The notes below the pieces were generated by a model. The model was not told where the DNA came from. It was given only the letters and a program-made list of their open reading frames with translations, and searched no databases. Position numbers and translations under genes: made by a program. Source: Candidatus Kapaibacterium sp. (GTDB lineage: Bacteria; Bacteroidota; Ignavibacteria; Kapaibacteriales; UBA2268). Taken from it: 64,000 nucleotides of DNA. The stretch lies in NCBI GenBank assembly GCA_963665665.1, contig OY762428.1:3584001-3648000 (forward strand). Direction: 5' to 3'. Below, in pieces: positions 23,931 through 41,903 of this stretch; position 1 is the first letter of the stretch; the number at the start of each line of letters is the position of its first letter.

Positions 23931-23945
23931 TAAACGGAGAGCGGA

Positions 23946-24929
23946 ATGAGAATAACAACTAATTCAGTATATATTCCATATCAAAGAAATGTTGCGGAGC
24001 TTCAGGAAAGTGTTTACCGTGAACAGATAAGGCTGAATACCGGGAAATATCTTGTTTCCGTTTCCGATTCACCCGACAGGCTGGCTGATACAAAAAAATT
24101 TACCACCGAAATAAATAATAACGAAGCGCACATAAATGTTATTGACGATGCTCTGGCGGAAATGAGAGTTGTGGATGAACAACTTGAAAACGTGTTGGAT
24201 AAACTGATCAGTATCAGGCAGCTTGCAATCGAATCATCTGCAACCGGTAATATGGGAAATCTTTACTCAATGGGTGTATATGTTAAAGGATTGCTTGACG
24301 ATATTGTAAACGATGCAAACCTTGATTTCAAAGGTCGATTTCTTTTTTCCGGTACAAAAACAACGCCTGATTCCCTTGATAACGATGCCAAAATACCTTA
24401 TGTTCTTGTGGAAGGAGAACCGACTGAAGATAATCTGTCCGGCCTGTCCGTTGAATTTAACGGTAACGATAAAGGCAGGAGGGTAAACAAGGATAAATAT
24501 TCGGACGAAAGAATTAATATTCTTCCCTCTGAACTTTTCGGTGAATCTGCAACAGAGATATTTCAGCCGATTATTAATCTCTACAATATTTTTACTTATG
24601 ATTCTGAAGGTAATAAAAGGGATGAAAATTCCAAATTTACCAAGGAAGAACTTGGCCTGATTGATGGCTACCAGAAGGAAATTGCAGATTTCCACACAAT
24701 GATATCAAATGCCTCCTCGCATAATGGCGGGAAAATGGCCAGGCTTGAAGCAATTCAAACACAGATGACTTATGAAAGCTCAATCCTTAAGGATATTCGA
24801 TCTTTAAATGAAGATACTAATGTAACTGAATCCGTAATACAATTGAAGAAAGATGAGACTGCCCTGCAATACTCAATGCGAATAGGCAGCCAGATGATCC
24901 CCGTATCTTTATTTGATTTTCTGGGATGA
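23946..24929 (+). CDS. flgL: Flagellar hook-associated protein FlgL
   Basis: MRITT, LNTGK, FLFSG, C-terminal SLFDFLG; follows flgK. Confidence 0.88.
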   Translation: MRITTNSVYIPYQRNVAELQESVYREQIRLNTGKYLVSVSDSPDRLADTKKFTTEINNNEAHINVIDDALAEMRVVDEQLENVLDKLISIRQLAIESSATGNMGNLYSMGVYVKGLLDDIVNDANLDFKGRFLFSGTKTTPDSLDNDAKIPYVLVEGEPTEDNLSGLSVEFNGNDKGRRVNKDKYSDERINILPSELFGESATEIFQPIINLYNIFTYDSEGNKRDENSKFTKEELGLIDGYQKEIADFHTMISNASSHNGGKMARLEAIQTQMTYESSILKDIRSLNEDTNVTESVIQLKKDETALQYSMRIGSQMIPVSLFDFLG

Positions 24930-24947
24930 TAAGCATATATTTACAGT

Positions 24948-25793
24948 ATGAAAATTAGTACACTCATAGGAATCATTTTCGGCCTGCTTGCCATTTTCGG
25001 AGCTTTTCTCTGGGAAGGCGGTACTATTGATACCCTGTTCATGCTGCCCGCGATGCTTATTGTTTTCGGGGGTACTTTTGCTGCAGGGCTGGCCGGATCG
25101 TCTTTCAGGCAGATGGCAAAAATGCCTCAACTGATTAAGATAGCAATATTTCCGCCTAAATATGATATAGAAGCAATAACCAGGCAGATTGTTAGTTTTG
25201 CATTCATGGCACGTAAAGAGGGAATTCTTTCATTAGAAAAACAACTCGGAAAGGTTAAGCATCCATTCCTGAAAAAATTGTTAACCATTAGCATTGATGG
25301 TGCTGACCCTGAAACTCTCGTTGATATTGTTGAAAAAGAAATGGAATATATCAGTGCCCGGCACAATGCAAATATTAACCTGTTCGTAAAAATGGGCGGT
25401 TATTCTCCTACCATGGGTATTATCGGTACTGTAATGGGGCTTATTGCTACACTTGCTGCGGCAGGCAGCGACCCCAATGTACTTATTCATCATATTGCAT
25501 CTGCATTTATAGCTACCATGTGGGGTATCCTGATGGCAAATATAGTATGGCTGCCAATAGGCGACAAACTTAAAACCCTTCATAATAATGAAATGCAGAT
25601 ACTGAACGTTATGCTTGACGGTATGTATGCCGTACAACTTGGCGAAATGCCATCGGTTATCAAATCAAGGCTTTCTTCTGCCTTCCCTTTGTCACAGCAG
25701 GAGAGCCTGATGAAACAGTCCACCAGTCGTATTCCCCGCTCGGCTCCAACTGTTAACCCGCCGGCACAGCCGGCTCCTGATCCAAAGAAGTAA
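24948..25793 (+). CDS. motA: Flagellar motor stator protein MotA
   Basis: ARKEGILSLE, GGYSPTMGIIGTVMGLI, AFIAT.WGI. Confidence 0.9.
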   Translation: MKISTLIGIIFGLLAIFGAFLWEGGTIDTLFMLPAMLIVFGGTFAAGLAGSSFRQMAKMPQLIKIAIFPPKYDIEAITRQIVSFAFMARKEGILSLEKQLGKVKHPFLKKLLTISIDGADPETLVDIVEKEMEYISARHNANINLFVKMGGYSPTMGIIGTVMGLIATLAAAGSDPNVLIHHIASAFIATMWGILMANIVWLPIGDKLKTLHNNEMQILNVMLDGMYAVQLGEMPSVIKSRLSSAFPLSQQESLMKQSTSRIPRSAPTVNPPAQPAPDPKK

Positions 25794-26252: not shown

Positions 26253-26663
26253 TTAGAAACTCCCGGCATTGTTCATGATCGCAGAAAACATTGTGGCAAA
26301 AAAGGCAATGTAAAAAATTATCATTAATACAATAATTACAAGATAAATGATTGCAATTATTTTAAACAGGTTCATAGATTTGGAAAGAGCCTCAACTGCT
26401 TTGAATAGCATGTGGTCGCTTCCCTGGGTGGCAAATCCCTTGAATCCTTCAGCAGATTCTCTCAATCTGATACCGCCGATTATAATCGGTATGCCGATGA
26501 CTGCTCCAATGATAGATAAGCAGGACAGCGCCCCGAAAATTATTAAGAAAATCCCTACAAGGCCCATATCTGAGCCTAAGCTTGTTGATTGAGCCCTGAT
26601 TGGCCCGAGGTTAATCCTGTTTGCAGCTTCTTCCTGATTCTGATTGGTAAGTTCCTGATCCAT
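26253..26663 (-). CDS. DUF5362-like membrane protein
   Basis: GIFLIIFGALSCLSIIGAVIGIP..IGGIRLRESA. Confidence 0.7.
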   Translation of the reverse strand: MDQELTNQNQEEAANRINLGPIRAQSTSLGSDMGLVGIFLIIFGALSCLSIIGAVIGIPIIIGGIRLRESAEGFKGFATQGSDHMLFKAVEALSKSMNLFKIIAIIYLVIIVLMIIFYIAFFATMFSAIMNNAGSF

Positions 26664-26945
26664 TTCAATTCCCTTAATTTTAAAAACAGAGTATTTAATG
26701 TTTTGAATATTTATTATTATACGAAAAATTATTCAATTATTTATGAAATTATTTTCAATTATTTTTGCCTCGAAATTATCTTGCTATTATTCCGGTAAAT
26801 CAATATGAGTACAACAGTATGAGCTCAGTTTTATTACTATTTATTATGATAATTTTAAAGAAAATAAAATCCCTTCCCAAATATTTACTACCCGGGAAGG
26901 GACTTTCAATTTATCATGAAATCAGTAAAATATTACTGATCTGTT

Positions 26946-27800
26946 TTACTGCCCGATGAAAATCGGTTTTTTGGCTTCTTTTACAAGGTATTTCATCAGG
27001 CTACCTGCCATGAAATCAAGAATACCCTTGCTGGAATGAGCCCCGATAACAAATATATCCGGCCAGTCCATCATGTTGTCATCAACATATTTTATGATGT
27101 TTTTGCTGGTGTAAACTGTTTCTACATCTTTAAACCCATGGGCACGCAGGTATTTTTCCGCGTCGTTCAGGTAGTGGCTTGCCAGCTTATTGTAGTCATG
27201 GCTCATCAGTATCTTTACCCTGATATCAAGCGCATCAGGCCAGCCAACCTGTGCGAATCTCTGCAAGGCCCTGCAGGATGGTTTTTCGCCGTCGAAGCAG
27301 ATCAGTGCATTGAAAGGGCCGTTATCAGCAGAAGGTATTTTCAGGCTTTCCGGCACTGCAAGCAGCGGTGTAACAGCTTCATCGAGTATTTCGCTGAAGG
27401 AATCCCCGGGTTCGTCCTGGGATTCAAAATGGAAGAATGTTTTCGAACCGATTACAAGCAGGTCGTAAAATTTTGCTTCCTCAAGAATTTTATCGCTTGG
27501 GATACCCTGGCGTTCGTGCTCTTCGAATTTTATTCCTGCTTCCTTGCAGGAATTTCTGAATTTCTGCATCAAAATGTTGATCCTTTTATGTGCGGCCTCT
27601 ACCTTAGACTTTTCAAGTTCCCGGGCGTAGTGTGCTGCTCCGGCAGGTATAGAACCGATAGATTTTTCAATTCCGGGTATATCCAGAACAACAAGGCCGG
27701 TTACCTCGGCATGGTGGACTTTTGCCATCTCGATTGCTGTTGCCAGCGCTTTTTTCGAAAACGGAGACGGGTCAAGGGGTATTAATATTCTCTTTATCAT
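26946..27800 (-). CDS. Universal stress protein (tandem USP domains)
   Basis: MIKRILIPLDPS, DLLVIGS, second domain FDG...VIGAHS...GS; AGGAG before ATG 27800. Confidence 0.9.
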   Translation of the reverse strand: MIKRILIPLDPSPFSKKALATAIEMAKVHHAEVTGLVVLDIPGIEKSIGSIPAGAAHYARELEKSKVEAAHKRINILMQKFRNSCKEAGIKFEEHERQGIPSDKILEEAKFYDLLVIGSKTFFHFESQDEPGDSFSEILDEAVTPLLAVPESLKIPSADNGPFNALICFDGEKPSCRALQRFAQVGWPDALDIRVKILMSHDYNKLASHYLNDAEKYLRAHGFKDVETVYTSKNIIKYVDDNMMDWPDIFVIGAHSSKGILDFMAGSLMKYLVKEAKKPIFIGQ

Positions 27801-27987
27801 CTTCTCTCCTGACAAATTATTATTACGTTTTATCTTTTCATAACGATACAAAATTTTTCTTTACAAAAATAATGAAAATTTAACGCAAGCGATACAAATA
27901 ATTCAATAAGTAAATTGCAATTTTGTATGCGTCCGGGTAATTTGCCGTCCTTATAGTTCATACCGGCACCCAAAACTCCTATCCAAA

Positions 27988-28354
27988 GGCTTGAAGCCGC
28001 TGGTTGGATACAGCTAAATCCAATTGCCCCATAGCAATATAGCATTAAAAAAAATAATAAAAAATCTATTTTTTTTTTTTGAATTTCAGATAATTTTGTA
28101 TATTAAGTTATTCTGAGCGGTTAAATGGTAGTATGAAACGGTTGCAACAATAAAACGGAATATTTCCGGTTTATTGGGATTTTGATATTATTATTGTGCA
28201 ATATCAGGAGGCTTATGTAAGAAGAAAAAAGAAAATAAAAACCGACGGCCGGAAGCCGCCGGCTCATCGACGCGGAATAGCAGTTCCGCATGATAATTTG
28301 TTGTACATTTTAAATTTAATGAAAGTTTTTGAAATGAAAAAATTTAGTTTGTTA
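27988..28354 (+). repeat. Module leader, copy 1 (blocks 27988-28104 and 28207-28354)
   Basis: Near-identical to 33596-33710 and 33816-33962, including the first codons MKKFSLL. Confidence 0.95.
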
Positions 28355-29005
28355 TTTATCGCATATGCATTTGTTGCTTTGTTTGGAATTAAAGGAATTT
28401 TGATTGCCGATGATGAACCACCTTGTTTGCCTGATTGTGATAATTCTCAATGGATACCTGCATGGCCTGGAAACCCTTTATGGGTTGATGTACAGTTGTG
28501 TGACAAAACTTTTCACGTTGCATACAGATCAAGATTTGCCTGCAATCTCTATTATGATTATTATATTGAAGTGGTTTGCGGAGATGAAAGTGGTGATGTT
28601 AGAAATTGCATAACTCAGGAATATGGCGATATCGGTACATTTCTTCAGGCTGCGATAGAACAACTTTTGATTATTAATCCAGCTAATTTTCCTCCTACCC
28701 AAGACGGTGATTGTGAACCGAATTGGCGAGTTATGAAGGGATCATGTTGGTACTTGGATTGGTTTGATGATGTGCCCAAACATGAAGAAACACAATCAAT
28801 ATCTTATGGATATCCTGAATGGATTACACCATGTACAACAAATGATTGTTGTCTTGAATTTTTTAAGGTATGTCAAAATAATGGAGTAAGAGAAATAACC
28901 CAGACAGGTTACTTACCACCTGAAGATCCGACTTGCGAAAATACATATCCTGGGACAAATCCTTTTGAATGTCAACCAGTTTGTGGTTCTGTTTATAATA
29001 GGTAA
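28334..29005 (+). CDS. Secreted cysteine-rich hypothetical protein
   Basis: Signal peptide MKKFSLL...; 15 Cys; no recognised family. Confidence 0.75.
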   Translation: MKKFSLLFIAYAFVALFGIKGILIADDEPPCLPDCDNSQWIPAWPGNPLWVDVQLCDKTFHVAYRSRFACNLYYDYYIEVVCGDESGDVRNCITQEYGDIGTFLQAAIEQLLIINPANFPPTQDGDCEPNWRVMKGSCWYLDWFDDVPKHEETQSISYGYPEWITPCTTNDCCLEFFKVCQNNGVREITQTGYLPPEDPTCENTYPGTNPFECQPVCGSVYNR

Positions 29006-29026
29006 TAATTTCAGAAAGGAAAAAAT

Positions 29027-29614
29027 ATGAGAAATATATTAATTGTGATATTGATATTATTTTATTCGGAAAGTGTTTTTTCTACAGATTTTTCATTTGT
29101 AGAAATCAACTATATGAATGGAATAAACAAAGTTTCAGAAGATCAAGGTGTTTCATGGAAAATCCAGAAAAATCGTTTTGATTACGTTATCCTGAAACGA
29201 TTAGGAAAACCTTCCAGAAAAACTTTTGATAATGGTATAAATTGGAAGAGAGTTTCACAAAGTACCAATGTAGTAAAATATACTACACTACATAATGAAA
29301 CTAAGTTGTCTTATGACAATGGTATAACATGGATTTTCGAAGAAAAAAATGAAATTGATCAAAAGTTGAAAATAACTCCGAATCCATCATTGTCAAATGG
29401 AATAGTTAAAATTGGATTTCTGAAAGGTAATAATGAAATTGTAGTTCAGATTTCAAGTTTAAAGGGTAGTATTTTATTTACAGAAATGTTTTATATAAAT
29501 AATTTTGATAATTCAATTAAGTTAACAATCCCTGAATTGAAATCAGGAAGTTATTTTATAATCTTGCTCGGGGATAAAACCAGCCAGAGAGGGATTCTAC
29601 AAGTAAATAACTAA
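29027..29614 (+). CDS. Short BNR/Asp-box repeat protein with T9SS CTD
   Basis: SEDQGVSW, TFDNGINW, SYDNGITW; ITPNP...LKSGSY. Confidence 0.75.
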   Translation: MRNILIVILILFYSESVFSTDFSFVEINYMNGINKVSEDQGVSWKIQKNRFDYVILKRLGKPSRKTFDNGINWKRVSQSTNVVKYTTLHNETKLSYDNGITWIFEEKNEIDQKLKITPNPSLSNGIVKIGFLKGNNEIVVQISSLKGSILFTEMFYINNFDNSIKLTIPELKSGSYFIILLGDKTSQRGILQVNN

Positions 29615-29637
29615 TTCTTATTTGCTAAATTTATTAT

Positions 29638-29674
29638 AGGTTGTCGTATTTCAACTCTTAGGATACGACAACCT
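29638..29674 (+). terminator. Intergenic hairpin (terminator or mRNA stabiliser)
   Basis: aggttgtcgtat...atacgacaacct 12-bp stem. Confidence 0.55.
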
Positions 29675-29715
29675 CATATTAAGAATAATATTTGTAATAT
29701 AATTAAGGTTGCCTG

Positions 29716-31878
29716 ATGAAAAAGATTGTAATATTGCTTGCTTGCCTGTATTCTGTTGCTATTGTAAATGCTGAAGATTGGGAAAAAGTAAGTATCAAAC
29801 CGGGTTCTCAAACATTGAACGATATACTGGATGTGGACGGAGATATTGTTGTAAGCTTTGGTAATTTCGGGCTTATAAAAAGAAGTTCTGATTCGGGTTA
29901 TTCATGGGAGACAATCAGAGGTTCTTCGAAGAACAATAATTTGAATGCAGTAAGTTTGAGTGGTAGTGATTTATTTGCTGTCGGAGACAGGGGAGAAATG
30001 ATTAAATCAACAGATTATGGATTACGCTGGGAATATGTCGATATTTCAGTAGATAACGATCTTGCTGATATTGAATTCAAAGATAATATTGGCGTGGTAG
30101 TCGGCGACAATGGGTTGATACTTATTAGTTCTGATGGAGGTTTAAACTGGGAAATATCAGAAAGCCTTATTAACGATAATTTGAACGGAGTATGTTTAAG
30201 CGATAACAACTATTTGTTGGCTTATGGTGATAACGGAAGTTGTCTTCATTCATTTGATTCAGGAAAAAATTGGACATTGATCAACCTGGGAACGAGCAAC
30301 AAACTTACATGCCATACATCATCTGACAGCCTGATTATAATAGGAGGCGCTGGCCGGACATTAATTAAAAGTACTGATTATTTTAATTCGTTTGAATACG
30401 ATGAAAAAGATTTGCTTTTTGACTATTATAGTTCATTATTATACATTAAAAATGACATCCTGATAGCTGGCGGAACATTCAACGGCAGTAACGGGCAGGC
30501 ATGGTCTGATGACGGTGGAAAATCGTGGTACATTAGTAAATTCTTTGACGTACCATTTTTATCATATTCATTTTACTCAAATCACTTAGTAAGTTGTGGT
30601 TATTACGGTAGAATCTCAAACCTTGATATCACAGATGGTATAGAAAAGGATTTCTTTTTGCTCGGAGATATGGTTGAATCGGGAGATAAGCCTTATGAGT
30701 TTTGGGCTGTAAGAGGTTATGAAATGGAAAAAATTGTTGCCAACGAGGATAAAAATGTCTATTTGTCACTTGACAGCGGGATGACGTGGAAAAATATTAT
30801 TGAGCTTGATTTAAACAAAGTTGTCGATATTAAAATACCTTCTAGTGAAAAATTTATTGCCTTTATAGACAGTTCAAAATTTGTAACAGAAAATGGTAAA
30901 TCCTTTATGAAGCATTGGGCTGTAATAAAAATATCCGAAAACGACGGTAATACATGGAGAGATTATAAATCCGACAAAGAATTTTATATCATAAATGCCT
31001 CGACCCGGGATAATTATTTTGCAGTATTTGCTCCAAAAAACATTTTAATTAGCTCTGATGCCGGTAATAATTGGGATATAAAAGATATACCGGATAATAT
31101 TACGATTAAGTTCGGGATGGTTATTTCACCCGGAGTAATATATGCTATTGTATGGGATGGTACAAAGTATATTTTTGTTAGAACTGATAACGAATTTGCT
31201 GATTACCAGGTTATAAATAACAATATAGAAGCCGCAGTTAATTTTGATTTGGAATTTTTTGATGATTCAAATGGCTGGATTATGATTGGAAATGTTAATA
31301 ATACTGAAGCTAATAAAATATATAAAACAAATGACGGCGGAAAAACCTGGGTTGAGAATATGTCTCCACAACTACCACAGAGTGTTGGTTTGAATAATAT
31401 GGATTTTGTAAATCCTCAATATGGCTATTGCGCATGTAATTTTGGTTACGTCTATTTCACATCAGACAGCGGTACGACATGGATAGAACGGCCTGTTAAA
31501 AATGCAGGAGAAAAGCCGAAAGTAAATATCTATTATCCAAATATTAATTATGCTTTTTATGCCGATGGATATGGTATCTGGAGGTATCATGATGATATAA
31601 ACGTATCAGTACTTGATAATACTGATTTTTCCCTCAGAATGTTTATCTTCCCCAACCCCGCAGCAAATTCAATAACAATCCAGCCTGGAAATGATCTAAA
31701 CGACCTTGCTGAAATCAGCATTACCGATATGGAAGGGAATAGCGTTCTTAGCAAAACAGAATATATAATTACCGGGGATGAAATAAAACTTGATATTTCC
31801 ATGCTTCCCGCAGGCGCTTATGTTGTATCTGTCAGCAGCGGCGGCAATACCCTGAACAGTAAGTTTGTGAAGGAGTGA
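29716..31878 (+). CDS. YCF48/BNR-repeat beta-propeller protein with T9SS CTD
   Basis: Many S.D.G..W repeats; IFPNPA...LPAGAYVV...KFVKE. Confidence 0.85.
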   Translation: MKKIVILLACLYSVAIVNAEDWEKVSIKPGSQTLNDILDVDGDIVVSFGNFGLIKRSSDSGYSWETIRGSSKNNNLNAVSLSGSDLFAVGDRGEMIKSTDYGLRWEYVDISVDNDLADIEFKDNIGVVVGDNGLILISSDGGLNWEISESLINDNLNGVCLSDNNYLLAYGDNGSCLHSFDSGKNWTLINLGTSNKLTCHTSSDSLIIIGGAGRTLIKSTDYFNSFEYDEKDLLFDYYSSLLYIKNDILIAGGTFNGSNGQAWSDDGGKSWYISKFFDVPFLSYSFYSNHLVSCGYYGRISNLDITDGIEKDFFLLGDMVESGDKPYEFWAVRGYEMEKIVANEDKNVYLSLDSGMTWKNIIELDLNKVVDIKIPSSEKFIAFIDSSKFVTENGKSFMKHWAVIKISENDGNTWRDYKSDKEFYIINASTRDNYFAVFAPKNILISSDAGNNWDIKDIPDNITIKFGMVISPGVIYAIVWDGTKYIFVRTDNEFADYQVINNNIEAAVNFDLEFFDDSNGWIMIGNVNNTEANKIYKTNDGGKTWVENMSPQLPQSVGLNNMDFVNPQYGYCACNFGYVYFTSDSGTTWIERPVKNAGEKPKVNIYYPNINYAFYADGYGIWRYHDDINVSVLDNTDFSLRMFIFPNPAANSITIQPGNDLNDLAEISITDMEGNSVLSKTEYIITGDEIKLDISMLPAGAYVVSVSSGGNTLNSKFVKE

Positions 31879-31942
31879 GATAGCTAACAGAATAACGGGG
31901 GAGTATCACTCCCCTGTTTAAAATCAAAAAAAGGAGAAACAA

Positions 31943-33055
31943 ATGAAATTAGTATTTCTATTCCTGATTTTATCATGGAATTATTTATCCGGCGGTATAT
32001 TGGAAAAAGGACAAGAATTTTTACTCTCAAATGATGACATTTGTACTTTTTCAAGTAATTATGAAAATATTCTTTTCGATGGAGAACTGTTTTTCTGCCA
32101 TTACCAGCTTGATGAAAATTGTAAGGCCACGATTTTTAACCATGACAGCAGCAGAGAGTTTACGTTCGAAATTCCCTATGATTTAATTGATAATGAATAT
32201 CCTTGTGAAATTCAGGAAATACATAACCTGAGTTATACTAACGGCAAACTATTTTTTAATAATTATGCCAAAATTCTAATGTATGAATTCGATGGAAATA
32301 ATTTCATCTTTAAGAAAATTTATGATGTAAATAAAATTTTTCCCAATACAAATATAAGTTATGTACCTTCGTTCAAGGTTATAAATAATGTCGTACACGG
32401 CCTGATACTTGATTATAATTCCTCTAATGAATTTCATGAAAAGCCAGGGTATTTTTCTTTCGATTTGTCAAATACACTTAAAAACAAATGGGTTCAACCA
32501 TTATCTATTGAAGGTTTCTATTGGACTCTGTTTCAACCACGTATTTGTATGGACGTAAATGAATCAAATCTCATCGTATCTGATATCACAAGCTACAGGA
32601 TTAAAATATATGATACTAAGGGAAATATCCTGGATACCCTGACAAGAACAATTGATGATTGGCGTGCAGTAAAATATAAAAATGATGATTTCAAATATAA
32701 AGAACCACGTTATTATATAAATAAATTACAGGGTGATTCGATCACAACATCGCTTATTCACCGCGTGGAATTTGTAAAGGAGGATCATATTTTAGTGTGT
32801 TATTCAATTAATAGGGACAAAAAAAGCCAGGAGCTATATCAATTGTATTATGATTTATGGGAAAAGGATGGCAATTCGTGGATACTAAAATACCATGACA
32901 TAAAGAATACTGATATTAATGAAGACAACTCTGATCCTGGTGCTCCAAGGCTTGATACTGGTTACTTCATTTATGGCGAAGATGTTTATAATATCCGAAA
33001 CGGATTTGATAATGATGGCAAAGCATATATTTTAAAAAGATCAATAATATTATGA
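31943..33055 (+). CDS. Secreted hypothetical protein (probable beta-propeller)
   Basis: AGGAG RBS, signal peptide, YRIKIYDTKG-type blade motif. Confidence 0.65.
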   Translation: MKLVFLFLILSWNYLSGGILEKGQEFLLSNDDICTFSSNYENILFDGELFFCHYQLDENCKATIFNHDSSREFTFEIPYDLIDNEYPCEIQEIHNLSYTNGKLFFNNYAKILMYEFDGNNFIFKKIYDVNKIFPNTNISYVPSFKVINNVVHGLILDYNSSNEFHEKPGYFSFDLSNTLKNKWVQPLSIEGFYWTLFQPRICMDVNESNLIVSDITSYRIKIYDTKGNILDTLTRTIDDWRAVKYKNDDFKYKEPRYYINKLQGDSITTSLIHRVEFVKEDHILVCYSINRDKKSQELYQLYYDLWEKDGNSWILKYHDIKNTDINEDNSDPGAPRLDTGYFIYGEDVYNIRNGFDNDGKAYILKRSIIL

Positions 33056-33524
33056 CAATACATAGACTATATGTTTTGTTTTTTATCTTAATGGTTTGTT
33101 CAAATAACACATTGTTCGATCAAAATTTGAATGATGTTCAATTTAAAAATTACAATAACACTGTTTTCATTGTTTGTGATAATTTGTTTTGCAAGGATTG
33201 CTTGTATAATCTGAACAAAGTACAGCATATTTGGCGAAATAATTATAAAACAGTTCTAATTACCAAAGCCAAGAAGGATAAAAAAACGATATACGGAATA
33301 TCAAAATTTTTCAGAAAACAATTGCATTTTGACGAAATACTATTTATCGAAGGAGAAAGATATTTTGGATTCAGCACATTATGTATTGATAAATATGAAT
33401 TCAGGCAAACTCCGGGTTTAATCGTGAAAATAATGATACCTGCTTTTCGGTAGATTACGAAATGATTTTTGGTGGCAATTATGATACATTGTCTCTGAAG
33501 AAAAAACTTCAAAAATATTTTTAA
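33052..33524 (+). pseudogene. Thioredoxin-like (CxxC) hypothetical protein, probably frameshifted at 33427-33430
   Basis: FCKDC and TP motifs; annotated frame stops at 33453, -1 frame continues NNDTCFSVDYEMIFGG...LQKYF to TAA 33522-33524. Confidence 0.5.
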
Positions 33525-33535
33525 ACCCCGATGAT

Positions 33536-33606
33536 GCGGCACTACCCTGAGCGGGAAGTTTGTGAAGGAGTGAGGATAGATAGAAAACATCCGATGGCTT
33601 GAAGCC
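33536..33606 (+). repeat. Orphan T9SS-CTD gene tail + palindrome half; 71-bp exact copy of 38645-38715
   Basis: gcggcactaccctgagcgggaagtttgtgaaggagtgaggatagatagaaaacatccgatggcttgaagcc. Confidence 0.95.
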
Positions 33607-33962
33607 GCTGGTTGGATACGGCTAAATCCAATTGCCCCATAGCAATATAGCATTAAAAAAAATAATAAAAAATCTATTTTTTTTTTGATTTTCAGATAAT
33701 TTTGTATATTGGGTTCATCGAATTAGAAGAACAAGACAAACAGGGAAATATACCAGTTGCCGGGTAGTATTCGTGTGCTAATTAATTGATATTAAAAGTT
33801 TAGAAATACTTTTGGGGAGGCTTATGTAAGAAGAAAAAAGAAAATAATAACCGACGGCCGGAAGCCGCCGGCTCATCGACGCGGAATAGCAGTTCCGCAT
33901 GATATTGTATTAGATATTTTAATTTAATGAAAGTTTTTGAAATGAAAAAATTTAGTTTGTTA
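33596..33962 (+). repeat. Module leader, copy 2
   Basis: Near-identical to 27988-28354 except the central ~100 bp and poly-T length (10 vs 12). Confidence 0.95.
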
Positions 33963-36326
33963 GTTCTATTTTGGATAGTATTTTTTATCACCAATTTAAA
34001 TGCTGAATACGCTTTGGATTCAACACTAATTTCTGTACAGCCAATTGAAATTTCAAGTCCCCCTAATCCTCAAATTGGAGATACAATTACAATTTCAGCA
34101 AAATTTAAATCTGAAAAATGCACAAATGCTCATAGTGTTTTTATTTTTTCTGAAAATATTAAGCCTGTATCATATCAGGGAGATTCATTGTTTTTATATG
34201 AAAATATTTATTTAGATTCAGGAGTAGTATATACAAAATCGTATGATGTAATCTTAAATAGCGTCGGAATTAGTAGTATTTCATTGGGAGCCAGTTTGCC
34301 AAGTACCTCATTTGCTCCTCACCAAAATGATATTCAAAACAGAATTATAAAAGCAGATATGTCAGGAATGTTTAGTTGGACTTTTAGTGATAATGATTTT
34401 TTAGGAGATACATATACTGAAGATATTGATCCAAATTGGCCGGGACTTACTGGAATTCCTAATAGAAGAATTGTTTACAGGGGGGCTGCAAAATTTATAG
34501 ATGTCAATGGGGATAATTACAGAAGACCATACTATCGATATAAATCAGCTTATACAATAGCCCGAATTTGGTTTAAATTACCAAATGACAATACTCTTTA
34601 TCATCCTGTACCACTAAGCAATGGAGAATATATTGAAGGGGTACATTATGCAAAATGTGACGATAATGGAAATTTTGAATTTGATATATCATTTGATAAA
34701 GATTTCCCAGTATCAGATGGAGTAAAAATTGTCATAATGATACAAAAAAACAATGAAGCTATTAACCTTGAAAGCGGAACAGGACATTATGAAGTTAATT
34801 TAGATGATGGATTATCAACAATTTTAAATTTAATGTATAACTTTCAGGAATTTGATGTTAATACTTATCAAAATGAACAATATTTTTTAAAGAATGATTG
34901 GCCGGATGTTGACCAAGACAACTCATTATTTAAAATACATTGGGCTGATGGACCAGCGTTGAGATATTGCACTTTGTCAAGAAGATTCGTAAAAGAAAGA
35001 TTTGATGTTCAAGATTATAGTCAACTTCCGTTCAGTTTACCGACTGAGGATGTAGTAATTTATAAGAATTATCCGTTTGCAGGTAAATATAATAATAGAA
35101 CTAATTGGAGTGGACCGATACATTTTAAATATAATAAACAGACAATTATGGTTGTTTCTCATGAATATGGACATTATGTTGATCATGCAATGGATGATTT
35201 TTATTTTGTGGGTAATCCTGAAAATACAGAGGGATTTGCTATGTTTTTCTCTGCGGCAGTTGCAGCTTATTGTAATAATAAGTTCGGTGATGATTTTGGA
35301 TTTATAGATAATTGTGAAATGGCTCCATTTTATTACGTTACGTGGGATTCTGATCCGTCAAATTCCGTAAGATTTGGCAATATGAATAAAACATTAAGTA
35401 ATGTTAATATGTCAAAATTCGCATCTTATCTTTGGCAAGTATATGATAGTAAAAATGATGGATATTTTATGGCAAATTCTTACTTTGGATGCCAAGATGA
35501 TATTAATGGTTATAATAATGACGATTTTGAAAATTTTGGGAAACAATTGTTTGAAATCTGGATAGATTATCCTAATGGGTATGCTATAAATTTTCATAAT
35601 TATTTAAAGAATAGATTACTTACACAAGATGAACAAGATGCGCTTGACAGGATATATGAATGTATGGATTTTGATAATGATGGTGTTTTTGGAAATATTT
35701 ATCCTACTCAACCAAAAGATATATCTTATCAAAATATTGATGTAAATAATTATCAAATAATGTGGGAAAGTGGATCTTATGAGAATGCCTCATATTCAAG
35801 AGTTGACAGAGGGATTTCCTCTGGTCAGGCTAATTTCAGAAATTTTGAAGATGGATATGTAATTGAAGAATTTGACAATGGAAATTATATTTTTAGTAGT
35901 TCATATTCTATTTTAGATAATAATTCAGTTGATTTAAACAAAAATTCGGCATACAGATTAAGTTCTATTTCATCTGTCAATTCTAATACTTCATTATTTC
36001 CAATTTCACTAGAATGTCCATTCCCAAAAACGAGATATTGTGATTTTTCTTTTGATGTAGCAAAGGATATTGTAAAACCAAACCCGGTAATTGATAATTG
36101 TAGCTTAATTTTAAATTTGAAATCAGTCAGTTATGTTCGGATTTTATTATATAACAATCAAGATTTTGTATCAGAAATTTATTCCGGAACACCGATACAA
36201 ATCAATAATGAAGTCAATATTAATTGTAATAAATTTGCCTCTGGATGTTATTTCTTTGTTATTGAGAAATATTATCAAAGCAATGATAAAAAGACTAATG
36301 ATATTATAAAGTTTGTTAAGTTATAA
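33942..36326 (+). CDS. Secreted HExxH zinc metalloprotease-like protein with T9SS CTD
   Basis: Signal peptide; SHEYGH...TEGFA gluzincin-like motif; VKPNPV...FASGCYF...KFVKL. Confidence 0.7.
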   Translation: MKKFSLLVLFWIVFFITNLNAEYALDSTLISVQPIEISSPPNPQIGDTITISAKFKSEKCTNAHSVFIFSENIKPVSYQGDSLFLYENIYLDSGVVYTKSYDVILNSVGISSISLGASLPSTSFAPHQNDIQNRIIKADMSGMFSWTFSDNDFLGDTYTEDIDPNWPGLTGIPNRRIVYRGAAKFIDVNGDNYRRPYYRYKSAYTIARIWFKLPNDNTLYHPVPLSNGEYIEGVHYAKCDDNGNFEFDISFDKDFPVSDGVKIVIMIQKNNEAINLESGTGHYEVNLDDGLSTILNLMYNFQEFDVNTYQNEQYFLKNDWPDVDQDNSLFKIHWADGPALRYCTLSRRFVKERFDVQDYSQLPFSLPTEDVVIYKNYPFAGKYNNRTNWSGPIHFKYNKQTIMVVSHEYGHYVDHAMDDFYFVGNPENTEGFAMFFSAAVAAYCNNKFGDDFGFIDNCEMAPFYYVTWDSDPSNSVRFGNMNKTLSNVNMSKFASYLWQVYDSKNDGYFMANSYFGCQDDINGYNNDDFENFGKQLFEIWIDYPNGYAINFHNYLKNRLLTQDEQDALDRIYECMDFDNDGVFGNIYPTQPKDISYQNIDVNNYQIMWESGSYENASYSRVDRGISSGQANFRNFEDGYVIEEFDNGNYIFSSSYSILDNNSVDLNKNSAYRLSSISSVNSNTSLFPISLECPFPKTRYCDFSFDVAKDIVKPNPVIDNCSLILNLKSVSYVRILLYNNQDFVSEIYSGTPIQINNEVNINCNKFASGCYFFVIEKYYQSNDKKTNDIIKFVKL

Positions 36327-36342
36327 TTATTTGAGGATTTTT

Positions 36343-38682
36343 ATGAAAAAAATAATCATTTTTTTAATTTTAATTCAAATAAATCACCTTGCTGCCGGGA
36401 CATTCGTTCCCAACCGGGGGCAGTGGCCCGGAGAAGTTAGATTTATGGCTGAGACAAATGGCGCTAATGCCTGGTATACTGATGCAGGAGTTGTTTATGA
36501 TTTCCATACTGATATTATAACTGATGATAGCATAGTTGTAAGAAAAGGGCATGTTGTCGGAATGAGATTCATTGAAAATGAAAGAATTGTCAGTTTGGAG
36601 AAACATGAAGGAAGAATAGCAACCGGCTCCAAAAATAATTATTTCATTGGTTTTGACAGAACTAAATGGCAAACGAATGTGCCAGTTTATAAAGAATTGA
36701 ATTTTTCTATTTTTTCGGCCACTGCACGCTTTTATACAGAAGATGAATTTTTAAGATACGACATAGTTATTCCTGCCGGAGTATGCCCAGAAAATTACAG
36801 CCTTGAATTTTCCGGTCAAAAATCAATTGATCTTATCAATAACGAAATAATACTTGAAACATCAATTGGCAAAATAATCAACTCTAAAATGAAAACCTAC
36901 CAGTTAAAAGACGGTAGGAAAATTCCTGTTGACTGTCGAATTGTCTTTGATAAAAAAAACAGAATAAAATTTATTCCAGGAAATTATGACCCATCACGAG
37001 ATCTAATAATTGACCCTCTATTATTTTGCTCTTTTGTTGGTGGTTCTTCAAACGAGTATATGAGTAAAGGCTTTACCATGAATAACGATAGAAACGCCGT
37101 GTTTACCGGAATGACCAGTTCTTCAGATTTCCCGAGAAGCGAGGGAGCTTATCAAAGCGAATATAAAAACGGGAATAATTATTGTTTTATAACAAAAATT
37201 GATACAGATAATGAAAAACTATTATTTTCGACATTTTATGGTTCAGGTAAATATGAATGCGGAGAAGAAATTCAATTCGATGACGCAGGTAATATTATTG
37301 TAATTGGGACGACGCAAAATCTAATTCCAGTTACAGAAAATGCCTACCAAAAAGCATATGGTGGAAATATTGATAATTTCATTTGCAAATTCACTCCTTC
37401 CGGCGATAGCCTTATTTTTTCAACAATGCTCGGAGGTTGCGATGCAGATATAAGTTCCCCATTCTTTTGGATTGATGGAGACAATAGTATTACAATTATT
37501 GGAACCAGTAAATCTCATGATTATCCTGTAACAACTGATGCAATACAGAAAGTATGGCCTGAGAATGCAATTACTCAGGGAGTTATTACAAAAATTTCTG
37601 CCGATGGTTCAGAACTAATTTATTCTTCTTTCCTGGGTAATTGCCTGGAAACAGTAATCACTGGCGCTGATATAAATGAAAGCGGGGAAATATATATTGG
37701 CGGTTGGCAAAGAGGGGATGGTTTTCCGGTTACAAAAAATGCTATCCGGAATGAAATAGAATATGAAAATGAAAAATTCTTAGTAAAAATCAATTCAGAC
37801 CTTGATAGTATATTATATTCCACTTATTTATATAATGACCAAATCTATGGAATAGAACAAATTAAATGTTCTAAAAATAATGAAGTATATCAGATATTAA
37901 ATTCTGAAAAAAGTGGATATTCAGCTACGGATACTATTAGTGTAATGAGTTTGAATGGCCCAAGAAATACAAAACTATTAAATAAATTTATTGATATTCC
38001 AAATAATATGGAACGCGAGATTCTTCTTGGTATGATGGGAAGTGCTGATGTTACAGATATTGAAATTGATAGAAAGGGTAATTTATACTTATCTACAAAT
38101 AGTATAAATGATACCCGTGATTTTTCAACTTCAAATGCATTGCAAAATGGATATGAGGTTTGGGCAGGCGGAGGTTTATATATTATTGATAATGAGTTGA
38201 AATATTTTAGGCTGGCCTCATATTTTGGTAATGATACAGAGGATTGTTCCACAGACATTAGATGTATTAAAATTGTTGATGAATATGATTTCTATTTTGC
38301 AGGGCTAACCCAGGGTACATTACCAATTACTAGTGATGTAGGCGGGATAAATGGAAAAATGAAAAGTTCTGTTTTTTTAGCAAGAGCTGTAATTGAACCT
38401 TTGAAAGTTGAAGAAATAGGATTTAACGGAGTTCAAAATAATATTTCTTTATATCCAAATCCGGCAAAAAGTGAAATAACAATAAAGCCTGAAAAAGAAC
38501 TAAACGGCCTTGCTGAAATCAGCATCAATGATATGGAAGGGAAAATCGTTCTTAGCAAAACAGAATATATAATTTCCGGAAATGAAATAAACTTAGATGT
38601 TTCCATGATTCCAGCAGGTGCTTATGTTGTATCTGTCACCAGCGGCGGCACTACCCTGAGCGGGAAGTTTGTGAAGGAGTGA
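36343..38682 (+). CDS. SBBP-repeat beta-propeller protein with T9SS CTD
   Basis: FVPNRGQW N-domain, LIIDPL, G.TSSSDFP and FSTFYG repeats; LYPNPA...KFVKE. Confidence 0.85.
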   Translation: MKKIIIFLILIQINHLAAGTFVPNRGQWPGEVRFMAETNGANAWYTDAGVVYDFHTDIITDDSIVVRKGHVVGMRFIENERIVSLEKHEGRIATGSKNNYFIGFDRTKWQTNVPVYKELNFSIFSATARFYTEDEFLRYDIVIPAGVCPENYSLEFSGQKSIDLINNEIILETSIGKIINSKMKTYQLKDGRKIPVDCRIVFDKKNRIKFIPGNYDPSRDLIIDPLLFCSFVGGSSNEYMSKGFTMNNDRNAVFTGMTSSSDFPRSEGAYQSEYKNGNNYCFITKIDTDNEKLLFSTFYGSGKYECGEEIQFDDAGNIIVIGTTQNLIPVTENAYQKAYGGNIDNFICKFTPSGDSLIFSTMLGGCDADISSPFFWIDGDNSITIIGTSKSHDYPVTTDAIQKVWPENAITQGVITKISADGSELIYSSFLGNCLETVITGADINESGEIYIGGWQRGDGFPVTKNAIRNEIEYENEKFLVKINSDLDSILYSTYLYNDQIYGIEQIKCSKNNEVYQILNSEKSGYSATDTISVMSLNGPRNTKLLNKFIDIPNNMEREILLGMMGSADVTDIEIDRKGNLYLSTNSINDTRDFSTSNALQNGYEVWAGGGLYIIDNELKYFRLASYFGNDTEDCSTDIRCIKIVDEYDFYFAGLTQGTLPITSDVGGINGKMKSSVFLARAVIEPLKVEEIGFNGVQNNISLYPNPAKSEITIKPEKELNGLAEISINDMEGKIVLSKTEYIISGNEINLDVSMIPAGAYVVSVTSGGTTLSGKFVKE

Positions 38683-38696
38683 GGATAGATAGAAAA

Positions 38697-38723
38697 CATC
38701 CGATGGCTTGAAGCCATCGGATG
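38697..38723. repeat. Perfect palindrome (REP-like) at island right boundary
   Basis: catccgatggc-ttgaa-gccatcggatg. Confidence 0.85.
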
Positions 38724-38751
38724 AATAAAAAATCAGGGAAAATTTGATTAT

Positions 38752-39654
38752 CTAAATCATTTTCATTGTGAAATCAACGAGGTTTTTATACATAATTTTT
38801 TCAACCTGTTCCTCGCTGAGTTTAAGGTCTTCGCGCAGGATGTTTTCAACATCAGGGTATTCGCTGACATCGCTGAAAGGCGTTTTATCCATTCCGTCGA
38901 AATCGGCGCCAAGGCCAAGAGTATTTTCAGCGCCCATCTCCATGAAATGCTCAACATGCCTTGCAAATGCTTTCCTAATTTCATTCCTGTCTTCAGAATC
39001 TGAAATAAATATAGAGTAAAAATTCAAGCCAATAAATCCGCCCCGGTTGATTATTTCTTTTGCCTGATCGTCATATAAATTTCGAGGGTGGTCAAATATC
39101 CGGCGGGAATTTGAATGGCTCGCTGCAAAGGGCACCCTGGCTGTTTTTACCACATCGTCGAACCCGGCATTATTAATATGGGAAACATCGATTATCATTC
39201 TGAGTTTTTCCATTTCCTCCACCACCTCCCTGCCGAAAGTAGTCAGCCCGAAGGGATTATCAACTCCGTCGGCTACGAAATTCCTGTGGTTCCAGGTAAG
39301 TGTCATGGCTCTGACGCCAAGCTGGTAAAAGGCATATAAGTTACTGATATTATCTATAATCGGCGTTGCGCCTTCGAGCGAAAGTATCACGTTAACTTTG
39401 TTTTCGTCAAAATCTTCAGGCCTGCCAAGATGCTGAATCCTTTCATCTTTCTTCCGCCAGAAATTACCAATGCAGGAGGCGGCTTCCCTGAATGCAGTAT
39501 CGCCGTGTGAAGGCGGCAACACGCATACGGCAAAATATTGCAAAATACCGTTAACTTTATTAAATTTTTCAAGGTTCCAATGAGCATCCTTTTTATCGAA
39601 AGGGGTGTCGATAAACTTTAAAATAGTATCGCAGTGAGCATCTGCAACTTTCAT
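38752..39654 (-). CDS. Membrane dipeptidase (peptidase M19)
   Basis: DAHCD, LSLEG, LTWN, IDVSH, ASHSN, HPRN, GADFDG. Confidence 0.93.
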   Translation of the reverse strand: MKVADAHCDTILKFIDTPFDKKDAHWNLEKFNKVNGILQYFAVCVLPPSHGDTAFREAASCIGNFWRKKDERIQHLGRPEDFDENKVNVILSLEGATPIIDNISNLYAFYQLGVRAMTLTWNHRNFVADGVDNPFGLTTFGREVVEEMEKLRMIIDVSHINNAGFDDVVKTARVPFAASHSNSRRIFDHPRNLYDDQAKEIINRGGFIGLNFYSIFISDSEDRNEIRKAFARHVEHFMEMGAENTLGLGADFDGMDKTPFSDVSEYPDVENILREDLKLSEEQVEKIMYKNLVDFTMKMI

Positions 39655-39688
39655 AATTTTATTCTCTCCGTTGTTACGTTAATTTCAT

Positions 39689-40129
39689 TTACCATTCCCA
39701 TGTTGCGATCTTACCTTCAAAAACAGACGGGGTATTTCCGAAAGTATCGGTATATTCACAACTGATATTAATGAAACCCGGGGTTGGATCAACTGGAGGG
39801 ACGAATAACAATTTTTTTATTGAAATTTTTTGCTGGCCGGACTGAAAATCCCCTGCAAAATAATTATTCGATGAATTCAGGTGCAGGGTAACAAACTCGC
39901 CTGTGTTATTAGATATTATCAGGTCGGCCTGCCTGTTCCCTTCGCCCTTTATATGAACTTCGGTTTTAATATCATTTCCAATTTGCATAATTATAGGCGA
40001 TTCCAGCATGGTAGCGGCTGCATCAGAAATTTTGTTTTCTTCTGTATCATTTGTTTCCAACAAGAAAAACATAAAGAAAGCTATACCGATAATAACGAGA
40101 AGCAGGGCGATTAATCTTCTTGAATCCAT
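39689..40129 (-). CDS. Hypothetical protein with N-terminal membrane anchor
   Basis: 146-aa ORF filling the gap, N-terminal TM helix. Confidence 0.6.
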   Translation of the reverse strand: MDSRRLIALLLVIIGIAFFMFFLLETNDTEENKISDAAATMLESPIIMQIGNDIKTEVHIKGEGNRQADLIISNNTGEFVTLHLNSSNNYFAGDFQSGQQKISIKKLLFVPPVDPTPGFINISCEYTDTFGNTPSVFEGKIATWEW

Positions 40130-40321
40130 TTTTTACGTCTCATATTCTTTTAGAATCATATTCCATTCAGTAATATAGTAAAATATTTTTGCATGATAAA
40201 ATGCTTAAATTACAATTTTTCTATATTTGCTAATAATATGCCACGCTAATAATTATAATCACGTGAAAATTCATTAAATTTGTATAAAAGGAAATTATAC
40301 ATTGAATCTAAGGAATGAATA

Positions 40322-41407
40322 ATGCAGATAGGAATAATTGGACTTCCGTATTCAGGAAAAACAACACTTTTCCAGACTCTTACAGGAACGCTTCTCGGCC
40401 CCGATGCCGTTCAAAAAAGGGATGCCAACCAGGCTGTGGTGAAAGTACCTGATGCCAGGCTTGATGCACTGACGGAAATATTTAACCCCAAAAAGAAAGT
40501 TAATGCAGTTATAGATTTTGTTGATTTTGCCGGTGTACAAAAGGGCGACAGCGCCGGTTCGGCATTCAACAGCCAGTTCATGGCAAAAGTAAAAACCAAC
40601 GATGCCATCCTTCACGTGGCAAGGGGCTTCGAGGATGACGCAGTTCCGCATATCGAAGGAAATGTAAATCTGATCAGGGATATAAGAACCCTGGAAGAAG
40701 AGTTTATATTTGCCGATATGGCTTTCGTGGAATCAAGGCTGGAAAAGCTGGCAAAAGACCTTAAAAAACCTAAAGACAGGGATAAAGTACAGAAAGAAAT
40801 TGATATTATGAAACGCTGGCAGGCCGAACTTGAAAATGAAACACCCCTTAGGGAAGTTGAAATGAGTGATGAGGAGCAATTACTTATTAAAAACTATGCC
40901 CCTCTTTCTGCCAAGCCCCTGCTGATAGCGCTAAACCTGAGTGAAGACGATGTTGCTAAGGCAGAGGAAATTCAGAATAAAGTAAAAGAAGAGATTAAAG
41001 GCAAAAACGTTGCAGTTGAGCCTTTCTTTGCAAAAATTGAAATGGAACTTCTGCAGCTTTCCGATGATGAAAAAGAAATGTTCATGGAAGAATACGGCTT
41101 GACGGATTCGCCACTCAGCAGGCTGCTTCGCAGCGCTTATGCCCTTCTTGGCCTTCAGTCATTCTTTACCGTTGGCGAAGACGAGTGCCGCGCATGGACA
41201 ATCAGGAAAGGCATGAACGCTCAGGAATCTTCCGGGGTTATTCATACTGATTTTTATAACAAATTTATTCGTGCCGAAGTCGTCTCCTATAATGATTTCA
41301 TGGAACACAAATCCATGCAGGCTTGCAAAGAAAAGGGCCTTTTCAGGCTGGAAGGTAAAGAATATATTGTAAACGACGGAGATATTATAAATGTCAGACA
41401 CGGGTAA
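40322..41407 (+). CDS. ychF: Redox-regulated ATPase YchF
   Basis: GIIGLP.SGKTT, VPD.RL, FFTVGEDE.RAW, IHTDF..FIRAE, RLEGKEYIV.DGD. Confidence 0.95.
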   Translation: MQIGIIGLPYSGKTTLFQTLTGTLLGPDAVQKRDANQAVVKVPDARLDALTEIFNPKKKVNAVIDFVDFAGVQKGDSAGSAFNSQFMAKVKTNDAILHVARGFEDDAVPHIEGNVNLIRDIRTLEEEFIFADMAFVESRLEKLAKDLKKPKDRDKVQKEIDIMKRWQAELENETPLREVEMSDEEQLLIKNYAPLSAKPLLIALNLSEDDVAKAEEIQNKVKEEIKGKNVAVEPFFAKIEMELLQLSDDEKEMFMEEYGLTDSPLSRLLRSAYALLGLQSFFTVGEDECRAWTIRKGMNAQESSGVIHTDFYNKFIRAEVVSYNDFMEHKSMQACKEKGLFRLEGKEYIVNDGDIINVRHG

Positions 41408-41903
41408 ATTTTCGAAATATAGTTTAATAATTTCCTTTCTGTTTTTATTTTTATTATCCAATCTTCATTCAGAAGAAAAGGAAATAATTCCCGATGGTTT
41501 TACCGCCGATTTCCCGGGAAAGCTCCTTAGGTTCGACCGTGACGACGAACTTGATGAAACATCCGACCTTCTGATCTATACTACAAGGGATAAAGAAACT
41601 GCTGAATCTTATACCGTTACGGTAATAAATTTCAAAGATAAAATAGACAGCCTTGAGCAGTACAACAAAGCAATTGAAGAATACAAACTGAAATGGAAAC
41701 TATCCGGAACCATTACACCCGACAGGCCCGATATTTTATATTTCACCGGCAAGGGCAATATGTTCTTCTTCCTGAAAATTGTAATCACAGAAAAAACCTT
41801 ATATGAAATTAGCGTTTATGGCTATAGGAACGATTACGGCCCCGAAAGGAAGCTGAAATTTTTTGACTCATTTGAAATCATTGATAAAGACGACAAGGAA
41901 TGA
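41391..41903 (+). CDS. Secreted hypothetical protein
   Basis: Signal peptide; overlaps ychF and the downstream gene; FFDSF C-terminal motif. Confidence 0.6.
   Translation: MSDTGKFSKYSLIISFLFLFLLSNLHSEEKEIIPDGFTADFPGKLLRFDRDDELDETSDLLIYTTRDKETAESYTVTVINFKDKIDSLEQYNKAIEEYKLKWKLSGTITPDRPDILYFTGKGNMFFFLKIVITEKTLYEISVYGYRNDYGPERKLKFFDSFEIIDKDDKE

Follow-up and report, generated by a model that had tools for sequence, protein, structure and literature searches.

Arrays of exchangeable units are found in several bacterial systems. Integrons carry cassettes of unrelated content that are separated by imperfect palindromic sites resembling right-end/left-end joints, and the pdif (Xer) modules of Acinetobacter plasmids are recombinase-free, bounded by short palindrome-like sites and provided with hybrid sites between neighbours. 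Integrative elements, too, can accrete at one att site. Here an A/T-rich island on contig OY762428.1 of Candidatus Kapaibacterium sp. is considered, in which two modules coding for secreted proteins, some of them with type IX secretion system (T9SS) sorting tails, follow each other in tandem and are joined inside a palindrome. Modular T9SS cargo has been described in Tannerella forsythia, whose KLIKK proteases carry unrelated domains between a shared signal peptide/N-terminal region and an almost identical C-terminal domain (CTD) (PMC4404884). Each of these genes is preceded by an A/T-rich tract, and it was proposed that pre-existing or acquired genes were fused to the shared signal peptide and N- and C-terminal extensions (PMC4404884). 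In Porphyromonas gingivalis, recombination and gene conversion of modular repeats turn T9SS surface proteins into strain mosaics (PMC5266723). As for the joints themselves, duplications in Escherichia coli were found to join at short microhomologies, four of these joints lying within repetitive extragenic palindromes (REP) (PMC1428787).

The stretch analysed, called the window below, comprises 64,000 nt of a genome assembled as one contig of 5.46 Mb; coordinates are those of the window unless marked as genome. Module 1 contains five genes (geneA to geneE) and module 2 contains two, encoding an HExxH protein and a DUF7948 protein. An 11-nt core, GGCTTGAAGCC, occurs at 27988 (site L), 33596 (site M) and 38705 (site R) and has no further copy in the window. 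This count of three compares with 0.01 expected and was reached in none of 100 shuffles. The whole genome holds four copies, of which the fourth (genome 3159566) has no flanking arms. The sites are built as follows.

27981-28009, no strand assigned: site L, a half-hairpin; ATCCAAAGGCTTGAAGCC equals the left arm and loop of a dispersed hairpin family at 16 of 18 bases and is followed by GCTGGTTGGAT, the start of the module; the fold is weak (z -1.3).
33536-33606, plus strand: stump and site M; begins abruptly at 33536 with the final 38 nt of a CTD frame, followed by a 3' untranslated region (UTR), the left hairpin arm and the core.
38697-38723, no strand assigned: site R, a perfect 12-bp hairpin located 15 nt past the DUF7948 stop codon and 29 nt past the stop codon of a convergent M19 dipeptidase gene; on the minus strand TTTTCTATCT follows.

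That the middle site is a chimera had been claimed in an earlier note on this DNA, and the alignments bear this out. Its left part (33536-33606) is identical to the right end of the island (38645-38715) at 71 of 71 bases, and its right side matches the left end over about 125 bases: 27981-28068 and 33589-33676 differ at 3 of 88 bases and, beyond a 2-nt indel in a T-run, 28081-28109 and 33687-33715 at 3 of 29. Site M is a crossover product: R contributes its left arm and loop, L the sequence past the core, and the switch from one to the other falls within the shared 11-nt core. It has the make-up of a duplication-type joint, with right-end sequence followed by left-end sequence and the same short repeat at both outer borders. 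The same note had placed a hairpin at each copy of the core. This is true of R, which folds strongly (-20.9 kcal/mol, z -9.1), but L and the chimeric M (33589-33617; the left arm of R with the right side of L; z -0.9) are half-hairpins that fold no better than shuffled sequences. From left to right, then, a half-hairpin precedes each of the two modules and a full hairpin closes the island. The left flank of L is typical of the hairpin family and its right side is foreign. Judged by the agreement of its left arm and loop with the family, L and R were two copies of a single dispersed repeat.

These features are best accommodated, with moderate confidence, by a tandem structure that arose through a crossover in the hairpin core and that homologous recombination and gene conversion, acting on the shared leader and tail, then remodelled. 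Two dispersed gene-end copies of the hairpin would have undergone an unequal crossover or a template switch, giving a tandem duplication whose unit ran from the promoter and 5' UTR through signal-peptide start, cargo and CTD to the half-hairpin. Later the interior would have been replaced, with the leader and signal-peptide start serving as the 5' homology anchor and the CTD as the 3' one, and the 38-nt CTD stump that closes module 1 would be left over from this replacement. The repeated blocks may be held at 97-100% identity by gene conversion, while the non-homologous spacers and the cargo stay different. No dedicated recombinase would be needed for any of these steps. The island is accordingly read as two independently transcribed operons for secreted or T9SS-sorted proteins whose ends appear to have been duplicated locally.

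The shared leader is itself a mosaic, in which block B1, about 100 nt of unalignable sequence, block B2, about 17 nt of variable sequence and block B3 succeed one another.

27981-28109, plus strand: B1, copy 1; half-hairpin, a TTGGAT-N8-ATCCAA palindrome, an A/T tract and a promoter-like TTGAAT-16-TATTAA.
33589-33715, plus strand: B1, copy 2; opens with half-hairpin M and differs from copy 1 by six substitutions and one 2-nt indel.
28207-28295 and 33816-33904, plus strand: B2, presumably within the 5' UTR, a double hairpin rich in GC; the copies differ at 1 of 89 bases; no Rfam match.
28313-28354 and 33921-33962, plus strand: B3, an exact 42-mer with the start region and the first 12 codons, MKVFEMKKFSLL; exact copies occur at these two positions only.

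B1 is a putative promoter, and its A/T-rich promoter-like part of about 50 nt has a further copy at genome 1023388 and weak counterparts in 9 of 40 relatives. The plus strand of B2 opens with GGAGG-N3-ATG-TAA, a start-stop mini open reading frame (ORF). Its minus strand looks like a strong intrinsic terminator (GC hairpin and T-run) with a second hairpin and a TAAAAT box before it, and B2 could specify an antisense RNA of about 75 nt. At the 3' side, the CTD block of geneC (31651-31879) is 85% identical to that of the DUF7948 gene (38455-38683), with 71% identity at the amino-acid level. The 3' ends of the modules are asymmetric: module 2 ends in the DUF7948 CTD and module 1 in the 38-nt coding stump and its 3' UTR. 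Of the common leader, start and CTD tail that the earlier note ascribed to both modules, the leader blocks and the 12 codons are indeed shared, but the intact CTD of module 1 lies internally, in geneC, and the end of that module carries only the stump. The shared 12 codons are on geneA and the HExxH gene, and the shared CTD is on geneC and the DUF7948 gene; the sharing is thus per operon and never affects both ends of one protein. This CTD subtype occurs on three genes in the genome, the third being a BNR propeller gene (genome 465469-467865), and a search with the CTD region in a large protein database gave no match besides the query itself and geneC. Two unrelated operons under the same promoter and leader are probably co-regulated.

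The leaders might instead be old paralogues, in which the blocks (a regulator site, an RNA structure, a translation start) have been kept alike by purifying selection alone. The spacers between the blocks, near-equal in length (100 and about 99 nt) and yet unalignable, look as unconstrained sequence between constrained blocks would. Nevertheless, 1 difference in 89 bases, 0 in 42 and 0 in 71, counted over sequence that includes a non-coding 3' UTR and a dead CTD stump, are too few for old paralogues, and the stump offers selection no function to act on. Selection alone is therefore regarded as highly improbable.

Further evidence comes from other sequencing runs. Nine were listed, eight of them (from three studies) contain at least part of the stretch, and four were examined as assembled contigs; pieces of both modules were present in all four, where covered. 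If two loci had been misjoined at the repeat at 33596, the joint would be an assembly artefact. The short-read contigs break at every repeat, and the window assembly has at least one probable 1-nt error: contigs of both run X1 and run X4 have an extra A after 33426, within geneE, which points to a homopolymer indel in the window assembly. Should the extra A be real, geneE would extend to about 33524, with 11 nt left between its end and the CTD stump. An artefact is nonetheless extremely improbable. The genome is a single contig of 5.46 Mb, and contigs of two samples pass from unique module-1 sequence into the stump, reaching 33565 in X1 and 33588 in X4; contig 3 of X1 spans geneA to 33565, showing the stump after geneE in a short-read assembly as well. 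A module-2 contig runs through R, read depth in the bin that holds the repeat is about double, as two copies predict, and 31-mers across the joint would be unique to M. Contig 6 of X1 follows a mixed repeat path (33848 T>A). A contig of run X6 joins 28239 to 33849, with 5609 nt skipped and 56 nt fitting both sides; it may be a one-module recombinant or a de Bruijn chimera and was given no weight.

Run X4 represents a second strain, about 99% identical, that has both modules. Its module 2 (33875-38711) shows 13 differences in 4837 nt, 12 of which are clustered in 72 nt at the CTD end (38593-38664). Seven of these 12 differing bases equal the geneC base, and the patch appears to be a mosaic of the conversion type. 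Owing to this patch, the 71-nt identity between stump and right end that characterises the window genome is absent in X4. A second sign of exchange is found at the leader. Of a 2216-nt contig of X4, all but 511 nt correspond to 31885-33588; 53 nt of the remainder match the leader as far as 28318, one base before the geneA start codon, and the match resumes at 31885 with about 458 nt unplaced between. Depth in X4 is 2-3 over geneA to geneC and about 6 over geneD, geneE and module 2. It is probable, as judged from these contigs, that in a common X4 variant another sequence of about 458 nt stands between leader and geneD in place of geneA to geneC. The differences of X4 fall in the leader and the CTD, not in the core.

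The palindrome is a common gene-end element in this genome. R is one of 54 hairpins within five substitutions of CATCCGATGACTTTAAGTCATCGGATG, as compared with none in the reversed genome. The family has the form CATCCGATG(A/G/C)C-loop-G(T/C/G)CATCGGATG and is not in Rfam. Nearly all of its 54 members lie 12-37 nt past the end of an ORF (for instance at genome 2775499, 3544295 and 5349618), and the arms vary in a compensatory manner (GAC/GTC, CAC/GTG, GGC/GCC). Of 129 further genomes from the taxonomic family, 59 contain the hairpin, at no more than 47 copies per genome (controls 0), and it spans 34 of the 55 genera when the window's own genome is counted. It is an old hairpin family. R has the form of an intrinsic terminator, its minus strand giving 12 pairs and then the TTTTCTATCT run past the M19 stop, and is thus a putative terminator-type hairpin. 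A protein binding site or a REP-like element are candidate reasons why terminator-like hairpins should keep one sequence across genera. Throughout the genome, hairpin arms with an intact loop that lack the partner arm are limited to M and one degenerate gene-end copy, which indicates that breaks do not recur at the hairpin cores. T9SS cargo is often arranged in tandem in this genome, with large arrays of paralogues at 1.367-1.387 Mb (more than 12 units), 3.952-3.959 Mb (5 units) and 4.590-4.594 Mb (2 units). In the last of these, a family hairpin with the same flanks stands at each unit boundary, and a stump-like flank precedes the first unit.

Several observations weigh against a local duplication followed by remodelling. 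The two units are homologous only at their ends, whereas plain duplication predicts colinear copies, and three conserved leader blocks interleaved with two unalignable spacers call for several events or patchy conversion. Among the contigs listed, none bridges joint M (33566-33656). Outside the CTD patch, module 2 of X4 has 1 difference in about 4765 nt, as against 39 in 3316 nt of the right flank (38682-41997); the island may therefore have spread or swept more recently than its surroundings, and a recent horizontal arrival would fit as well. Finally, a family hairpin downstream of the M19 gene was found at none of 29 orthologues in relatives.

The main rival is accretion, in which two pre-formed modules, each ending in a family half-hairpin, would have entered one resident gene-end hairpin successively. 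For each entry one Campbell-type crossover would suffice, using the 18-27 nt over which the hairpins are homologous, for instance with DNA taken up from a relative that has this hairpin family. Joining the left part of L to the right part of R would restore one family hairpin with typical flanks, and with the hairpin present in 34 of 55 genera, incoming DNA could carry a copy. Accretion would also suit the unrelated cargo between near-identical ends, the greater likeness of the island than of the flank between strains, and the atypically low GC content. The last point, already raised in the earlier note, holds: the GC fraction is 0.323, against 0.386 genome-wide, which places the island in the lowest 0.8% among 10.7-kb windows, and the mean of 31 CTD-bearing ORFs (0.378) is above it. 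Yet the shared ends reach far past the hairpin, into promoter, UTR and signal-peptide start, a second site with the same ends was found in no genome searched, and no empty site or circle was seen. The 0 of 29 M19 loci with a hairpin count against a resident insertion site too. Accretion is thus unlikely, though it keeps some weight, and local duplication with later exchange is preferred.

The earlier note went further and envisaged an integron-like system for T9SS cargo, in which a catalyst acting in trans, possibly a REP-associated tyrosine transposase (RAYT), inserts, amplifies or swaps cassettes at the palindrome core. In such a system the CATCCGATG...CATCGGATG palindrome would double as a site for a trans-acting recombinase (Xer-like, another tyrosine enzyme or HUH) that stacks modules running from promoter to tail. 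The proposal has some appeal. The crossover interval falls exactly at the centre of a palindrome whose arms measure 11 nt, a layout like that of tyrosine-recombinase core sites, the ends are near-identical around unrelated cargo, and candidate enzymes are encoded elsewhere in the genome. It was correct in that no integrase or transposase family is represented among the 57 ORFs of the window, nor by a PF00589 search; the 10 tyrosine-recombinase genes detected with PF00589 all lie outside the window, the nearest (genome 4021198) about 370 kb off. The note had suggested looking for a RAYT gene flanked by the CATCCGATG palindrome. The only Y1_Tnp/RAYT-like gene (genome 1821817-1822161, 75.7 bits) is flanked on both sides by REP hairpins of its own GCTCCGTAGGAGC type, which have 28 and 39 genome copies (controls 0), and no CCGATG/CATCGG motif occurs within 1.5 kb of it. 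This gene and its repeats are a separate REP/RAYT system. The palindrome resembles REP elements in its 54 dispersed extragenic copies, and differs from those associated with RAYT genes in its absence from the flanks of such a gene.

A cassette system would also lead one to expect the same ends around other cargo. Within the genome, no second place has the leader or the R/L joint, none of the 129 further genomes of the taxonomic family matched a leader 31-mer at three mismatches or fewer, and an exact 29-mer in metagenome_contigs and a degenerate leader pattern in genome_contigs gave 0 matches each, although both collections may lack near-identical records. The recurrence of leader and joint with different cargo that had been predicted is therefore not seen, both being confined to this locus. 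The situation that the note itself named as contrary to its proposal, a fixed arrangement with the leader nowhere else, is nearly what was encountered, with pieces of both modules in the four runs where covered. Regarding integrons in particular, there is no adjacent intI-type recombinase with attI, no promoterless cassette and no end recurring with many cargoes; each module opens with its own A/T tract and promoter-like B1, unlike integron cassettes. A comparison with attC-type hairpins, made by folding, showed weak folds at the unit ends M and L and a strong one at R alone. With two modules only wherever searched, a window that holds no recombinase, a RAYT-like gene among other REPs, cores that are not recurrent breakpoints, a promoter-like block on each module, and strain differences in leader and CTD rather than core, a site-specific system in trans is very unlikely, and a role of the palindrome as its recombination site is very doubtful likewise. 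If it did exist, T9SS cargo would have a cassette system that lacks a linked integrase, and the island would be the first visible two-module array of it. The integron-like reading is accordingly set aside, there being no linked recombinase, two modules only, promoter-like blocks of their own and a generic gene-end hairpin. What remains of the proposed recombination at the palindrome core is the R/L joint with its crossover interval in the 11-nt core, and leader and tail as places of exchange; a mobile cassette system with a dedicated catalyst does not.

The cargo of the two modules comprises the following genes, the T9SS type-A CTD being called with PF18962 and TIGR04183 at a curated cut-off of 27 bits for Por_Secre_tail.

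28319-29005, plus strand: geneA, a Cys-rich secreted protein with no CTD; no Pfam/NCBIfam match.
29027-29614, plus strand: geneB, a small protein whose BNR motif and T9SS tail are both borderline; Por_Secre_tail 23.6 bits (cut-off 27), TIGR04183 22.9 bits (cut-off 23).
29716-31878, plus strand: geneC, a BNR/Ycf48-like propeller with a type-A T9SS CTD (CTD block 31651-31879); Por_Secre_tail 48.9 bits.
31943-33055, plus strand: geneD, a secreted protein; no family matched in Pfam, NCBIfam or a PDB sequence search.
33052-33453, plus strand: geneE, a secreted protein; no family found.
33927-36326, plus strand: the HExxH (HEYGH) protein of 799 amino acids; no Pfam/NCBIfam family; its C-terminus is sorting-tail-like by eye.
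36313-38682, plus strand: the DUF7948 protein with a type-A T9SS CTD; Por_Secre_tail 51.1 bits; overlaps the HExxH gene by 14 nt.

Por_Secre_tail thus lies above the cut-off in geneC and the DUF7948 protein and just under it in geneB, and no T9SS tail match was obtained with Pfam or NCBIfam on the HExxH protein, geneA, geneD or geneE. PDB sequence searches with the HExxH protein, geneD and geneA returned nothing below E 0.03. A terminator-like hairpin of its own (31898-31914) follows geneC. The cargo proteins of the two modules are alike only at the signal-peptide start and the CTD, and the description of the cargo as unrelated, a Cys-rich protein with BNR propellers versus the HExxH set, is sound to this extent.

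Within each module the order of genes appears to be meaningful. For geneA, 26 homologues at 35-100% identity were found, all with invariant cysteines, and in 5 of 5 loci from other lineages geneA is followed by a geneB-like or geneC-like gene, the upstream regions being unrelated to the shared leader. In addition, the geneA family, of about 220 amino acids and with a C-terminal ...PVCGSIYNR, has no name and no Pfam/NCBIfam model and extends over several phyla-level lineages (loci L039-L043). Homologues of the HExxH gene occur in 10 of the 129 further genomes from the taxonomic family, and a paralogue lies in the same genome (genome 3194048-3196480), directly after which stands a DUF7948 paralogue (genome 3191725-3194055), in the same order; this paralogous pair has a different leader, signal peptide, CTD and terminator. 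A DUF7948 gene follows the HExxH homologue in just 1 of 9 relative loci checked, so the pair is not universally linked. Based on the conserved order of geneA with geneB or geneC and on the paralogous HExxH/DUF7948 pair, the cargo would consist of two coherent operons and a geneD/geneE pair, not of arbitrary cassettes.

On either side the island is bordered by minus-strand genes.

26946-27851, minus strand: a universal-stress-protein (USP) gene of tandem build, in the left flank (Pfam Usp, E 4.5e-18); its start lies 130 nt from site L.
38752-39654, minus strand: the M19 membrane dipeptidase gene, in the right flank (Pfam E 6.8e-72).

USP orthologues were found in 3 of 30 relatives and share no neighbours with the window, a search of metagenome_contigs with the USP protein gave 0 relatives, and the 29 M19 loci in relatives likewise have no neighbours in common with the window. 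An Rfam scan of 26500-40500 at E<=1 produced three sub-threshold chance matches, none of them on the leader or the hairpins. Further upstream, a flagellar cluster (flgF/G, flgA, flgH, flgI, flgK, a flagellin-like gene and motA) occupies 16490-25790 of this T9SS-bearing organism. In one Kapaibacteriales metagenome-assembled genome (L041), a geneA/geneC-like pair lies directly upstream of flgF/G/flgA.

The locus may be regarded as a clean, datable snapshot of how a secreted-protein repertoire is rewired, with one leader and one sorting tail placed on unrelated operons, the crossover still legible inside a gene-end hairpin and exchange still visible between strains. It speaks for general recombination, acting where expression and sorting signals are held in common, as the way in which modular T9SS cargo loci come about, in agreement with the published KLIKK case, and it advises caution against integron-like readings of such arrays. 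Two by-products, the hairpin family over 34 of 55 genera and the conserved leader element, are perhaps worth more than the island itself.

Compared with the systems introduced above, the island resembles integrons as an array of unrelated units with a palindromic R/L-type joint, but it has no intI, attI or common Pc promoter, its modules carry promoter-like blocks of their own, and its two units have not been found elsewhere. With pdif modules it has in common the lack of a recombinase within the modules, the palindrome-like borders and the hybrid site between them; however, there is no evidence for the hairpin as an Xer-type site, and its 54 gene-end copies behave terminator-like. The likeness to P. 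gingivalis lies in T9SS protein diversity that stems from exchange between repeated segments, although adhesin and catalytic domains within homologous genes are concerned there (PMC5266723), and whole unrelated operons behind a duplicated leader here. The duplications of E. coli have joints in short direct repeats, some of them in imperfect intergenic palindromes that use partial homology, and involve no site-specific enzyme (PMC1428787). Their units are colinear, whereas in the island only the ends are still alike. The KLIKK loci share with it T9SS cargo with unrelated domains, common N-terminal and CTD segments, in the island never both on one protein, and an A/T tract upstream (PMC4404884). 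Nevertheless, the shared 5' part of the island is mostly non-coding (a putative promoter and about 230 nt of UTR, with 12 codons), its units are operons and not single genes, its CTDs are 85% identical and not nearly identical, the joint is physically recognisable within a hairpin, and no inhibitor lipoprotein gene was recognised in it. The closest system in kind is therefore that of the KLIKK proteases and the closest in mechanism that of the E. coli microhomology duplication joints, and the island belongs with the known modular loci for T9SS cargo on which duplication and general recombination have acted.

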